Of a stretch of DNA of 35,664 nt, positions 1-35,664 are shown piece after piece. The position numbers and the translations under genes were made by a program. Source of the DNA: a virus. The DNA lies in UHGV virus genome UHGV-0379599; one strand, given 5' to 3'. Position 1 is the first letter of the stretch; each line of letters starts with the position of its first letter. A model generated the notes under the pieces. It was not told the DNA's origin. It saw only the letters and a program-made list of their open reading frames with translations, and ran no database searches.

Positions 1-752
1 AGGAATCGGAACCCCTTAACGTTATCGCTCAAACCATGTCGTTTCGTGAAATGCTGTTACGCCAGCGGGTCAATGAGGGCGCACGCGCCTGTATGTTAAG
101 CCACGGTTCAGGGACAAACCTGGACAACCTCGCGGGCAATATGAACACAAAGCGCCTGGTTATCACTCCGGCAACGGATACCACCGACGCGGTGATGGAG
201 AGCGATACCTCGCTGAGACTGCGGGCGCAGCGGGCGTATGACGGCCTGAGTGTTGCAGGCCCGTCAGGCGCATACGAGTATTTTGCCCGCAGCGCCAGCG
301 GTCTGGTGCGCGATGCGCGAGCTATCAGCCCGTCTCCGGCCTGTGTGACGGTTTCCATTCTGTCCACTGAAGGCGACGGCACAGCAACGGAGGCGTTGCT
401 TAATACCGTTCGCGCCGTTCTGAATGCAGAGGATACCCGTCCGGTGGCCGACCGCCTGACCGTACAGAGCGCCAGCATCGTGACATGGCGGCTGAATGCA
501 AAACTGTACTTTTACCCCGGCCCGGAATCCGAACCTATTCTGGCCGCGGCGGAATCGTCATTCAGGAAGTGGCTGGCTGAACAGGGGCTTATCGGTCAGG
601 ATGTGGCGTTGTCCGCCATTGCTGCCGCACTGCATGTGCACGGCGTGCAACGCGTGGAGATAATCGAACCCACACAGAATATGGCCATCAGCGACATACA
701 GGCGGCGCGCTGTGAGTCATTCTCCATCAGCGAAGGTGGGCGTAATGAGTAA
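1..752 (+). CDS. J: Baseplate assembly protein J, C-terminal part; the N-terminal part is at 35520..35664 and the two join in frame across the window ends
   Basis: Frame is open from the first base to the TAA at 750-752. Translation resembles P2 gpJ as recalled (RQRVNE, LSVAG..GAY.Y, PVADR.TVQSA, LHV.GVQRVE). Last base of the window plus first two bases form codon CAG. Confidence 0.85.
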   Translation, partial: ESEPLNVIAQTMSFREMLLRQRVNEGARACMLSHGSGTNLDNLAGNMNTKRLVITPATDTTDAVMESDTSLRLRAQRAYDGLSVAGPSGAYEYFARSASGLVRDARAISPSPACVTVSILSTEGDGTATEALLNTVRAVLNAEDTRPVADRLTVQSASIVTWRLNAKLYFYPGPESEPILAAAESSFRKWLAEQGLIGQDVALSAIAAALHVHGVQRVEIIEPTQNMAISDIQAARCESFSISEGGRNE

Positions 753-1272
753 TTCACTGTTACCGCCATCAGCCAGCAATTTCATGCGTTGCGCCGAAGC
801 TGTCGGAGCGCGCATTACAAACATCCCGGTAGACCTCAACACGCTGTGGTCACCGGACACCTGCCCGGTGCATCTGCTGCCTTATCTCGCCTGGGCATTT
901 TCCGTTGACCGCTGGGATCGCAACTGGCCGGAAGAGACAAAGCGACAGGTTATTCGTGATGCATGGCTGATACACCGACACAAAGGGACCATCAGCGCAC
1001 TGCGACGAGCCATTGAACCGCTGGGATACCTCATTCGCGTGTCTGAGTGGTGGGAGTTCGACGGCGAACCCGGAACATTCAAGGTTGATGTTGGCACGCT
1101 GGACAGTGGTGTGACCGAGGAAATGTATCTGGAAATGGAACGGCTGATTGCCGATGCCAAACCCGCAAGTCGCCACCTTATCGGCCTGAACATTATCCAG
1201 GACATTCCCGGCTATCTGTATACAGGCGGTGTGGTCTGTGATGGTGATGTTATTACTGTTTATCCCGGATAA
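745..1272 (+). CDS. I: Baseplate/tail protein I
   Basis: 175-aa ORF; ATG at 745 overlaps the J stop; position between J and H as in P2. Confidence 0.8.
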   Translation: MSNSLLPPSASNFMRCAEAVGARITNIPVDLNTLWSPDTCPVHLLPYLAWAFSVDRWDRNWPEETKRQVIRDAWLIHRHKGTISALRRAIEPLGYLIRVSEWWEFDGEPGTFKVDVGTLDSGVTEEMYLEMERLIADAKPASRHLIGLNIIQDIPGYLYTGGVVCDGDVITVYPG

Positions 1273-1282
1273 GTGAGAAACA

Positions 1283-3604
1283 ATGAGCACGAAATTTAAA
1301 ACCGTTATCACTACTGCCGGAGCCGCAAAGCTGGCAGCCGCCACTGTCCCCGGCGGGAAAAAAGTAACTCTGTCTGCAATGGCCGTGGGTGACGGTAATG
1401 GCAAATTGCCGGTGCCGGATACCGGTCAGACGAAACTGGTGCATGAGGTCTGGCGTCACGCTCTGAATAAAGTCAGCGTGGATAATAAGAATAAAAACTA
1501 TATCGTGGCTGAACTGGTTGTACCGCCCGAAGTGGGCGGCTTCTGGATGCGTGAGCTTGGTCTGTATGACGATGCCGGAACACTGATTGCGGTATCCAAT
1601 ATGGCAGAAAGCTATAAGCCTGAACTGGCTGAAGGCTCCGGACGTGCGCAGACCTGCCGCATGGTTATTATTGTCAGCAACGTGGCATCCGTTGAGCTGA
1701 GTATTGATGCCAGCACAGTGATGGCGACGCAGGATTACGTCGATGACAAAATCGCAGAGCATGAGCAGTCCCGCCGCCATCCTGACGCCACGCTGACAGA
1801 AAAAGGTTTTACTCAGTTAAGCAGTGCAACAAACAGCACCAGTGAAAAGCTGGCGGCAACGCCAAAAGCTGTCAAAGCAGTGTTTGACCTGGCAAACAGA
1901 AAACAGCCACTTGATGCAACTTTAACCGCACTTGCTGGCCTTGCGACAGGCGCAAATAAATTGCCGTACTTTACCGGTACAGACACTGTTTCTCAGACTG
2001 ACTTAACGTCAGTCGGTCGCGATATTCTGGCCAAAACAAGCGTTCTTGCTGTTATCCAATACCTTGGTTTTAGAGAACTCGGTACAAGTGGTGAAAAGAT
2101 CCCCCTGTTGAGCACGGCTAACACATGGAGTGCACGCCAGACTTTCAACGGTGGGATCACCGGGGCGCTGACAGGGAACGCCGACACCGCAACGAAATTG
2201 AAAACAGCGCGGAAGATTAACAACGTTTCATTTGACGGTTCGACAGATATTACTTTAACAGCCTCGGATGTCGAAGCATTGTCACTGGAGGATGCCAGGA
2301 AGATTATTCAACCGCTGCCTGATGTGTGGATACCGTTTAATGATTCACTGGATATGATTACGGGCTTTTCGCCATCATATAAAAAGATTGTTATTGGCGA
2401 CGACGAAATAACAATGCCTGGCGACAAGGTTGTTAAGTTTAAACGCGCATCGAAAGCAACCTATATTAATAAATCTGGTGTGCTGACAGAGACTGCCATT
2501 GACGAGCCACGATTTGAACGTGATGGCCTGCTTATTGAGGGACAACGAACAAACTACATGCTCAATTCGGAAAACCCTGCCAGTTGGGGGCGATCGTCAA
2601 ATATGGATGTTCCCGAAACCGGGACGGATAGTTTTGGTTTTACCTATGGAAAGTTTGTCTGTAACGATTCTCTGATTGGGCAAACGTCAGCCATTAATAT
2701 GGCATCAATTGCTGCTACAAAGTCAGTTGATGTTTCAGGCGATAACAAGTACGTGACAACCTCATGTCGTTTTAAAACAGAACGACAGGTAAGGTTGCGT
2801 ATCCGCTTTGATAAATATGACGGTAGTGCAACAACTTTTCTTGGTGATGCATATATTGATACACAAACGCTTGAAATTAATATGACAGGTGGCGCGGCCT
2901 CAAGGATTACAGCGAGAGTCAGAAAGGACGAAGCTACCGGATGGATTTTTGCAGAGGCAACAATCCAGGCAATTGATGATGAGTTAAAAATAGGATCTCA
3001 GATACAGTATTCCCCTAAGCAGGGCGGAGCAACCGTATCTGGAGACTATATTTATCTGGCCACCCCTCAGGTTGAGGATGGTTCGTGTGCATCATCTTTT
3101 ATTATCTCAGGAACGACGGCGGCTACCCGCGCAAGCGATATAGTTACAGTTCCAATTAAGAATAATCTTTATAATCTTCCTTTTACGGTTCTTTGTGAGG
3201 TACATAAGAACTGGTATAAAACGCCAAATGCAGCGCCGCGTGTTTTTGATACAGGCGGTCATCAAACCGGAGCGGCTATTATTCTTGGCTTCGGTTCTTC
3301 AGCAGATTACGACGGATTTCCTTATTGCGATATTGGAGGAGCTAACAGACGGGTAAACGAAAACGCATCGCTTGAAAAAATGGTTATGGGGATGCGTGTA
3401 AAATCAGATCAGTCTACGTGCTCAGTAAGTAACGGGCGCATATCCAGCGAAACAAAGACTACGTGGTCCTATATTCAGAACTCTGCAACCATCCGTATTG
3501 GAGGCCAGACTACAGCAGGGTTACGTCATTTATTTGGTCATATCAGGAATTTCAGAATATGGCATAAAGCATTAACAGACCAACAAATGGCTGAGGTTAT
3601 TTAA
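1283..3604 (+). CDS. H: Tail fibre protein H (773 aa), with a conserved N-terminal part and a divergent AT-richer C-terminal receptor-binding part
   Basis: N-terminus MSTKFKTVITTAGAAKLAAA and internal TEKGFTQLSSATNSTSEKLAATPKAVKAV are typical of P2 H / lambdoid side tail fibres. GC appears to drop after about 2300. Confidence 0.85.
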   Translation: MSTKFKTVITTAGAAKLAAATVPGGKKVTLSAMAVGDGNGKLPVPDTGQTKLVHEVWRHALNKVSVDNKNKNYIVAELVVPPEVGGFWMRELGLYDDAGTLIAVSNMAESYKPELAEGSGRAQTCRMVIIVSNVASVELSIDASTVMATQDYVDDKIAEHEQSRRHPDATLTEKGFTQLSSATNSTSEKLAATPKAVKAVFDLANRKQPLDATLTALAGLATGANKLPYFTGTDTVSQTDLTSVGRDILAKTSVLAVIQYLGFRELGTSGEKIPLLSTANTWSARQTFNGGITGALTGNADTATKLKTARKINNVSFDGSTDITLTASDVEALSLEDARKIIQPLPDVWIPFNDSLDMITGFSPSYKKIVIGDDEITMPGDKVVKFKRASKATYINKSGVLTETAIDEPRFERDGLLIEGQRTNYMLNSENPASWGRSSNMDVPETGTDSFGFTYGKFVCNDSLIGQTSAINMASIAATKSVDVSGDNKYVTTSCRFKTERQVRLRIRFDKYDGSATTFLGDAYIDTQTLEINMTGGAASRITARVRKDEATGWIFAEATIQAIDDELKIGSQIQYSPKQGGATVSGDYIYLATPQVEDGSCASSFIISGTTAATRASDIVTVPIKNNLYNLPFTVLCEVHKNWYKTPNAAPRVFDTGGHQTGAAIILGFGSSADYDGFPYCDIGGANRRVNENASLEKMVMGMRVKSDQSTCSVSNGRISSETKTTWSYIQNSATIRIGGQTTAGLRHLFGHIRNFRIWHKALTDQQMAEVI

Positions 3605-35169: not shown

Positions 35170-35516
35170 CAACCCGCTACACAGGAATGAATCCGGACGG
35201 GACGGGAAACCTGAACGATATGGAGCACCTGAAACAGTCAGTCAGGGATATCCTGACCACCCCGCTGGCAAGCCGGGTTATGCGACGGGAATATGGCAGC
35301 CTTGTGCCTGATTTGATTGACGAACCCATGAATAACACCACGCGTCTGCAATGCATGAGTGCTGCCGTGATTGCGCTGACACGATGGGAACCCCGCATTG
35401 CCCTGGACTCTATCGACGTTGTCTGGAAGGCAGGAGGCCGCGCCGGGGTGACGCTGTCGGGCACTGTCATGCAGACCATGCAGAATGTTGAATTAACCAT
35501 CACGCTGAGGGAGTAA
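35166..35516 (+). CDS. W: Baseplate wedge protein W (gp25-like)
   Basis: 116 aa; position between V and J. Confidence 0.8.
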   Translation: MTTRYTGMNPDGTGNLNDMEHLKQSVRDILTTPLASRVMRREYGSLVPDLIDEPMNNTTRLQCMSAAVIALTRWEPRIALDSIDVVWKAGGRAGVTLSGTVMQTMQNVELTITLRE

Positions 35517-35519
35517 ATC

Positions 35520-35664
35520 ATGCCTGCCGTTGACCTTTCACAGTTACCGGAACCCGCCATCATCGCGGAACCTGACTTTGAGGCAATTCTGGCTGACACA
35601 AAGGCCATGATGATTGCGTCCTATCCCGCCGAACAGCGTGAAGCCGTTTCCGCCGCGCTGGAGC
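35520..35664 (+). CDS. J: Baseplate assembly protein J, N-terminal 48 codons; continues in frame at window position 1
   Basis: MPAVDLSQLPEPAIIAEPDFEAILADTKAMMIASYPAEQREAVSAALE parallels recalled P2 gpJ N-terminus (MPIIDLNQLPAPDVVEELDFESILAERKATLISLYPEDQQEAV). The ORF runs off the window end with 1 spare nt. Confidence 0.85.
   Translation, partial: MPAVDLSQLPEPAIIAEPDFEAILADTKAMMIASYPAEQREAVSAALE

Follow-up and report, generated by a model that had tools for sequence, protein, structure and literature searches.

A P88-like Escherichia coli phage genome probably recorded as an excised, circularly permuted unit length

The end-join and gene J

UHGV-0379599, a viral DNA sequence of 35,664 bp analysed here over its full length (hereafter the window), opens and closes within a protein-coding gene, and its two ends each carry one part of what looks like the baseplate gene J of P2-type phages. 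This raises the question of whether the record is a piece cut from a bacterial chromosome, a composite of two prophages or, as an initial annotation made from the letters alone had proposed, a whole phage genome, here opened at an arbitrary point. Our comparisons indicate that the window very probably spans exactly one genome length (35,664 bp) of a temperate, P88-like Escherichia coli phage (Xuanwuvirus, Peduoviridae), in its excised, attP-bearing form and circularly permuted. The break inside J is an arbitrary linearisation, an effect of record-keeping.

From its ATG at 35520, J reads 145 nt to the last base of the window, which amounts to 48 codons and one spare base (C). Together with bases 1-2 (AG) this base rebuilds codon 49 as CAG, and the same frame, kept across 35664|1, runs on to a TAA at 750-752. 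Joining the ends yields one uninterrupted open reading frame (ORF) of 897 nt, whereas the two remaining frames across the join are full of stops. The split gene, the shared codon and the single frame are thus as the initial annotation had described them, and its estimate of about 298 aa for the joined protein proved exact. No terminal direct repeat of at least 5 nt was found between the window ends. The joined protein matches Pfam Baseplate_J (E 1.5e-19) and aligns in a single piece, over residues 1-298, with J of Escherichia phages 520873 and 503458 (98.7% identity); its identity to P88 J, likewise of 298 aa, is 97.0%. The gpJ of P2 has 302 aa, and P88 J was used in its place for the comparison of lengths.

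An in-frame join arises by chance alone once in three cases, and the nucleotide alignments across the ends are far more discriminating. The 700 nt centred on the end-join are colinear with about 1,000 complete E. coli genomes, in one piece and with no indel, at identities of up to 98.4%. The contig ERZ27234456:k141_1810 (73.9 kb) from ENA matches at 100.000% identity with 0 gaps over 22,322 bp that span the join, passing from window 26947-35664 directly into 1-13604, and it encodes the exact H tail-fibre protein of the window. Since this contig is identical and gapless across the end-join, we take the J join to be real and not a coincidence; judged by alignment, its base-perfect colinearity with independent contigs is far beyond chance.

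The remainder of the circle is covered in the same way. Prophage DNA in public contigs matches the window at 100% identity over every base, and two independent contigs, k141_1810 and NODE_11 of ERZ1743289 (206,753 bp), together cover the full circle at 100% identity, with overlaps of 2.4 kb and 5 kb. Self-comparison revealed no internal duplications. With the 53 annotated proteins of P88 as queries, a tblastn search of the window written twice in succession recovered all P88 head, lysis, tail, baseplate, gpA, ParM/StbB, D and hok genes in single copy and in the same circular order and orientation. The Peduoviridae gene set, judged by Pfam families on called genes and by homology to P88, is present (Q P O N M L X, lysis, R S V W J I H G and FI FII E T U D, plus gpA and ogr). 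The proposal of a complete circular or circularly assembled genome, as opposed to a prophage slice, therefore stands: the ends are contiguous, attP is intact and all P88 core genes occur once.

The attP site and the integration module

Comparison with E. coli chromosomes located the site at which this phage integrates. All matches on the int side start at window 14614 and all matches on the D-ogr-hok side end at window 14638, which defines a 25-bp att core; on the ihfA strand this core comprises the hairpin and T-run of the ihfA terminator. Strain Z0117EC0055 carries a related prophage between ihfA and btuC, and its junctions read left arm-core-ihfA and btuC side-core-right arm. NODE_11 follows the window at 100% identity over 8604-14638, beyond which it enters ihfA/pheT, and again at 100% over 14614-18278, beyond which it enters btuC. 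The attL and attR that the initial annotation advised seeking in host DNA are thus found, the integrated copies diverging at the core edges into ihfA and btuC. Integration lands between these two genes, and the ihfA terminator is rebuilt from phage DNA.

No ihfA or btuC sequence beyond the core was found in the window. Because both phage arms flank a single core, the window site is attP, the product of excision. The earlier observation that the window holds no host DNA is borne out, in that only the 25-bp att core is common to the chromosome and prophage DNA tiles every base. A search of the window for tRNA genes found none, so the site is not of the tRNA type. Recombination of this phage presumably depends on IHF, by analogy with P2, and the prophage adjoins the gene of the IHF alpha subunit.

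The module of integrase, C repressor and att site is very common and normally chromosomal, since the exact C repressor protein occurs in 11,473 blocks of a public protein collection and, in nine of the ten places listed, lies within an intact prophage whose neighbour is an intact btuC. The remaining place (L010) is a rearranged locus with a truncated btuC. These comparisons fix the integration site and the attP core of a widespread int/C module.

Several further observations concern this module. Read at its greatest length, the integrase ORF starts at 16806 (380 aa) and shares 100 nt (16706-16806) with the C repressor gene; Pfam domains, homology to P88 and the gene calls of public records favour a shorter form of 317-330 aa with its start at 16617-16656. 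The integration and immunity module as a whole (14748-17387) is distantly related to that of P88, and the gene at the cox position encodes a 92-aa phrog_11533 protein unrelated to that of P88. Between attP and int there are two additional ORFs on the minus strand, one for a 176-aa coiled-coil CCDC90-like protein and one for a phrog_4293 protein of 132-137 aa. Within the coiled-coil gene, 14941-15061 forms an imperfect internal repeat with a 33-nt offset (76% over 89 nt) that corresponds to repeated 'ltgkvdiaqkxdi'-type heptad-like segments. PADLOC matched the same protein to ZorA and LmuB, which we disregarded as weak coiled-coil matches. Near the hok/gef-family toxin gene of the left attP arm, no Sok-type antisense RNA was detected at the Rfam gathering score.

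Origin of the circular record and position of cos

We propose that Int-mediated excision would re-join the arms of attL and attR into attP at 14614-14638, that the excised circle would then serve as the template for gpA-type replication, and that cos, in the 25.25-25.73 kb spacer, would be where packaging cleaves it. The DNA that was sequenced may have been a circle (excised or in replication), concatemers or virion DNA joined at cos. From the sequence alone we infer that a circular molecule or a circular assembly graph was sequenced and then arbitrarily linearised by the assembler. Precedent exists in a whole P88-like phage recorded as a circular 'plasmid' of 34,461 bp and in the CP-numbered phage records 520873, 503458 and 500465-2; a circularly permuted complete phage record is routine, and this is a phage of a known kind. 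Apart from the deletion described below, the alignments place it, base for base, already in public assemblies as a prophage. The window is accordingly best read as a circle, with features near its ends interpreted across the join, and genes there labelled 'split' or 'truncated' are not biology.

Several points weigh against this reading or qualify it. An exact scan of IMG/VR with a 42-mer of the end-join gave no match, and an exact scan of IMG/VR and GTDB genomes with a 51-mer of attP gave none either. Joining attL to attR in silico and rotating the product would look identical, though no ordinary pipeline does so. Sequence alone, for its part, makes the physical circularity of the molecule no more than probable. 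Finally, P2, whose record annotates cosL and cosR, leads one to expect linear DNA in the virion, its cos ends lying in the non-coding spacer that precedes the portal gene and not at the window ends.

Three comparisons bear on the position of cos. The ends of the linear P88-like record LR595891.1 map to 25325|25326. A search for the P2 cos 19-mer, allowing up to 3 mismatches, gave no match in the window, and the joined P2 cos region showed a weak 20-nt similarity to the window at about 25394. Because this similarity and the mapped ends disagree by about 70 bp, we leave cos as a region only.

A 151-bp deletion in the isrK-C4 cassette

The window and NODE_11 are 100% identical over 14700-29389 except for 151 bp missing from the window at 19763|19764, and over 8604-29389 nothing else sets the window apart from the integrated copy. 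The reading of this length mismatch as bases lost at the end-join was rejected, the difference having been traced to 19763|19764. The 151 bp are present in P88, in L002 and in four other distinct related phages (six accessions), which are all the related phage records spanning the site, as well as in the top E. coli matches. A 60-mer of the deletion junction found no match in 5,426 complete E. coli genomes, and an exact scan of IMG/VR and JGI metagenomes with a 42-mer of the junction found none.

Rfam analysis of the parent prophage (L024, segment 5058-5255) identified a full-length isrK (RF01394, 62.8 bits) followed by a full-length C4 antisense RNA (RF01695, 78.5 bits), and neither was detected in window 19600-20000 at E<=10. 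The deletion takes nt 8-75 of isrK with its terminator, the promoter-like site before C4 and nt 1-48 of C4, and the isrK promoter-like site is now fused to the last 40 nt of C4. Directly downstream lies an epsilon-like gene whose product is 33% identical over 51 aa to the P4 epsilon helper-derepression protein (E 4e-9). Both isrK and the epsilon-like gene's leader contain the motifs TTCTCAAC and GAGCAAAG, and in the leader GAGCAAAG overlaps the Shine-Dalgarno of that gene (GAGCAAAGAGG); the Shine-Dalgarno region GAGCAAAGAGG is the predicted target of C4. The matching complements are found in C4, namely GTTGAGAA and, in the hairpin 2 loop, CTTTGCTC, which pairs with GAGCAAAG; this loop is gone from the window. 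Whole-molecule duplex energies are modestly better than those of shuffles (3 of 300 shuffles reach the observed value for C4 with the leader, and 8 of 300 for C4 with isrK), and the targeting argument rests on the short reciprocal motifs, not on these energies.

The arrangement of the parent prophage resembles two studied systems. In the immI region of P1 and P7, C4 RNA blocks translation of the antirepressor (PMC12197685, citing Citron and Schuster 1990). In the isrK-orf45-anrP locus of Gifsy-1, the antirepressor is transcribed from the isrK promoter, and translation of this downstream gene rises 20-200 fold when the cis-structure of isrK is broken by mutation (PMC4825925, Table 1). The parent prophage likewise has isrK with copies of the target, then C4, then an antirepressor gene, and its C4 loop is complementary to the ribosome-binding region of the antirepressor gene. 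Unlike Ant of P1/P7 or AnrP of Gifsy-1, the antirepressor here is a 76-aa homologue of P4 epsilon, and in the window the cassette is destroyed: measured against immI of the P1 type, the C4 upstream of the antirepressor gene is missing, and the C4-complementary ribosome-binding region is retained.

These data allow a tentative addition to the reading of the window as an excised phage genome, one that we regard as possible but rather doubtful: the free circle may have been caught because the 151-bp deletion derepresses the phage, in the manner of a P1 c4 clear-plaque mutant. Under this scheme, to which we give the same low credence, with isrK and the functional half of C4 gone the retained isrK promoter would make the epsilon-like antirepressor constitutively, the C repressor would be inactivated, and excision and lytic replication would follow. 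Such a course is consistent with the deletion as the sole difference from the integrated copy, with the loss of two RNAs that score well in the parent, with a lost C4 loop complementary to the Shine-Dalgarno region of the downstream gene, with the homology of the downstream protein (PF25738) to P4 epsilon, and with a junction absent from the genomes and metagenomes searched at a site where the related phage records keep the 151 bp. The block of antirepressor synthesis by C4 in P1/P7 and the effect of the isrK mutations in Gifsy-1 (both cited above) also argue in its favour. However, the short IsrK RNA activates translation in Gifsy-1, and its loss could lower expression; the promoter-like site of C4 is deleted as well; and an action of the epsilon-like protein on the phage's own C repressor is putative only. 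Moreover, one P88-like phage recorded as a circle keeps the spacer of the cassette at full length, so circular assembly does not require the deletion. If the scheme were true, Xuanwuvirus prophages would control induction by an RNA switch like that of P1 immI, not by the Tum-type route of 186. The isrK-C4 deletion is the one item worth follow-up, as a natural mutant for testing the induction of P88-like prophages.

Lifestyle and integrity of the element

The initial annotation had also allowed for an episome. That the element persists as a plasmid-like episome (phage-plasmid) by means of its ParM/ParR-type system, without integrating, is highly improbable. It does encode ParM (StbA_N + ParM_N) and a Plasmid_stab_B protein at 23466-24741, and a few P88-like genomes have been deposited as separate circular replicons; yet it also has an integrase, a C repressor and an intact attP, its identical copies occupy the ihfA/btuC site as prophages, and 1132 of the 1133 junction matches in complete E. 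coli genomes are chromosomal. The exact C repressor stands beside an intact btuC in nearly all of the places listed, as described above, and the par genes are common to integrated members of the genus and are no mark of an episomal variant. As a lifestyle, the episome alternative is thus not upheld.

Least of all can the window be taken for a slice of a chromosomal prophage or a chimera of two prophages with a coincidental in-frame J join, despite the one-in-three chance of such a join and the mosaic relation of the window to individual GenBank phages (the best of them 94.6% identical at 70% coverage): host flanks are absent, attP has both phage arms, the two independent contigs tile the whole circle at 100% and the core genes are single-copy, with no internal repeats, so that on the sequence comparisons the contig tiling and the att junctions already refute this explanation and the source is not a concatenation, one of the conditions that the initial annotation named as refuting it.

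Comparison with related phages

The closest relatives are the copies integrated between ihfA and btuC in ERZ1743289 NODE_11, ERZ27234456 k141_1810, ERZ27234540 k141_507 and GCA_012801815.1, which are 100% identical to the window in all segments compared, including both att arms, the PIN_12 gene and the H fibre. They differ from it in having attL, attR and host flanks where the window has attP, and NODE_11 has the 151 bp (isrK + C4) that the window is without.

P88 (NC_026014, Xuanwuvirus P88) and PhiR44_2 share the circular gene order, the inverted FI-U block, ParM/StbB, hok and ogr. Over window 1-25000, PhiR44_2 is 94.6% identical across 70% and P88 is 93.9% identical across 65%; the product of identity and coverage, about 0.61-0.66, refers to window 1-25000 only and leaves out the better-conserved head region. 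The criterion that the ICTV sets for a genus is a genome-wide nucleotide similarity of at least about 70% to a member. The window has the Xuanwuvirus-type arrangement of an inverted FI-U block, ParM/StbB and a hok gene adjoining att. Structural proteins of P88 are 96.6-100% identical to those of the window, and J has 298 aa in both. P88 differs in its integrase and C repressor (identities in Table 1) and has a different gene at the cox position. The window also lacks two things that P88 has, a DNA invertase and an alternative fibre segment that can be inverted; its H protein has a different C-terminus, and it carries an extra PIN_12 gene. The attP core of P88, GCCACCCGAAGGTG (PMC5285337), differs from that of the window.

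The circular 'plasmid' record pZ1323PEC0009-2 (NZ_CP148288.1; 34,461 bp) is a whole P88-like phage, 96.7% identical to the window over 81% of 11000-35664. It differs in its integrase/cox module and its methyltransferase/Com cargo, and has the full 322-bp spacer at the isrK-C4 position. P2 (NC_001895) resembles the window in its head, tail and lysis set, in gpA and ogr, in an integrase followed by the att site and in the expected placement of cos by the portal gene. The FI-U block of the window is inverted relative to P2, the 19-nt cos of P2 is absent from it, and the J proteins are less than 60% identical. P2 is not known to have a counterpart of the par genes or of the RNA-controlled antirepressor module.

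Structural, replication and cargo genes

The coordinates of the features discussed above and of the remaining genes are collected in Table 1.

Table 1. Features of UHGV-0379599 (positions in the window; a blank cell means that no strand or remark applies)
Feature	Position	Strand	Remarks
Gene J (baseplate), 3' part	1..752	+	last two bases of codon 49 to TAA 750-752
Gene I (Tail_P2_I)	745..1272	+	opens before J ends, as in phages of the P2 type
Tail-fibre module	1283..5334	+	H (773 aa), 92-aa ORF, 303-aa gp34/gp37-like fibre protein, tail-fibre assembly protein
Tail block U, T (tape measure), E/E', FII (tube), FI (sheath)	5591..11163	-	normal P88 arrangement
Gene D (Phage_GPD)	11321..12430	+	
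PIN_12-domain cargo gene	12604..13674	+	low-GC (~33%) island between D and ogr
ogr/delta-type late-gene activator	13759..14019	+	
hok/gef-family toxin gene	14210..14350	+	left attP arm, ~270 bp from core
attP core AAAGAAAAAAGGCCGCAGAGCGGCC	14614..14638		25 bp; identical to the ihfA rho-independent terminator; phage arms on both sides
Tyrosine integrase (Int_N + Phage_integrase)	15664..16656	-	43% identical to P88 integrase
C-type immunity repressor (HTH_3)	16706..17017	-	35% identical to P88 C
isrK-C4 cassette remnant	19721..19803	+	promoter-like site 19721-19750, isrK nt 1-7, junction 19763|19764, last 40 nt of C4
P4-epsilon-like 'derepression' (antirepressor) gene	19860..20090	+	76 aa, Derepression family PF25738
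gpA-type replication endonuclease (Phage_GPA)	20549..23389	+	
ParM (StbA_N + ParM_N) and Plasmid_stab_B (ParR/StbB-like) protein	23466..24741	+	conserved in P88-like phages
Non-coding spacer before the portal gene	25250..25731		putative cos region, placed as a region only
Head, lysis and baseplate genes	25732..35516	Q, P -; O, N, M, L, X, holin, endolysin, DUF2570, R, S, V, W +	
Gene J (baseplate), 5' part	35520..35664	+	codons 1-48 and first base of codon 49

The products of the genes at 25732..35516 are 96.6-100% identical to P88 proteins. The minus-strand orientation of the FI-U block was considered as an inversion or a misassembly relative to P2 and ruled out, P88 having the same layout. 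Within the tail-fibre module, H diverges from P88 H after about residue 230, and the 92-aa ORF is phrog_1361; the 303-aa fibre protein is separate from H and carries T4 gp34/gp37 trimerisation domains. ParM and its partner form a type II partition pair in an integrating P2-type phage, and the pair is kept across P88-like prophages.

The low-GC island at 12445-13717 encodes the 356-aa PIN_12 protein. Its gene is absent from P88 and occurs in 151 blocks of public contigs, at the same position in all those examined; the protein found no match in PHROGs or PADLOC. The gene is cargo at a variable spot of the genome, possibly for defence or a toxin.

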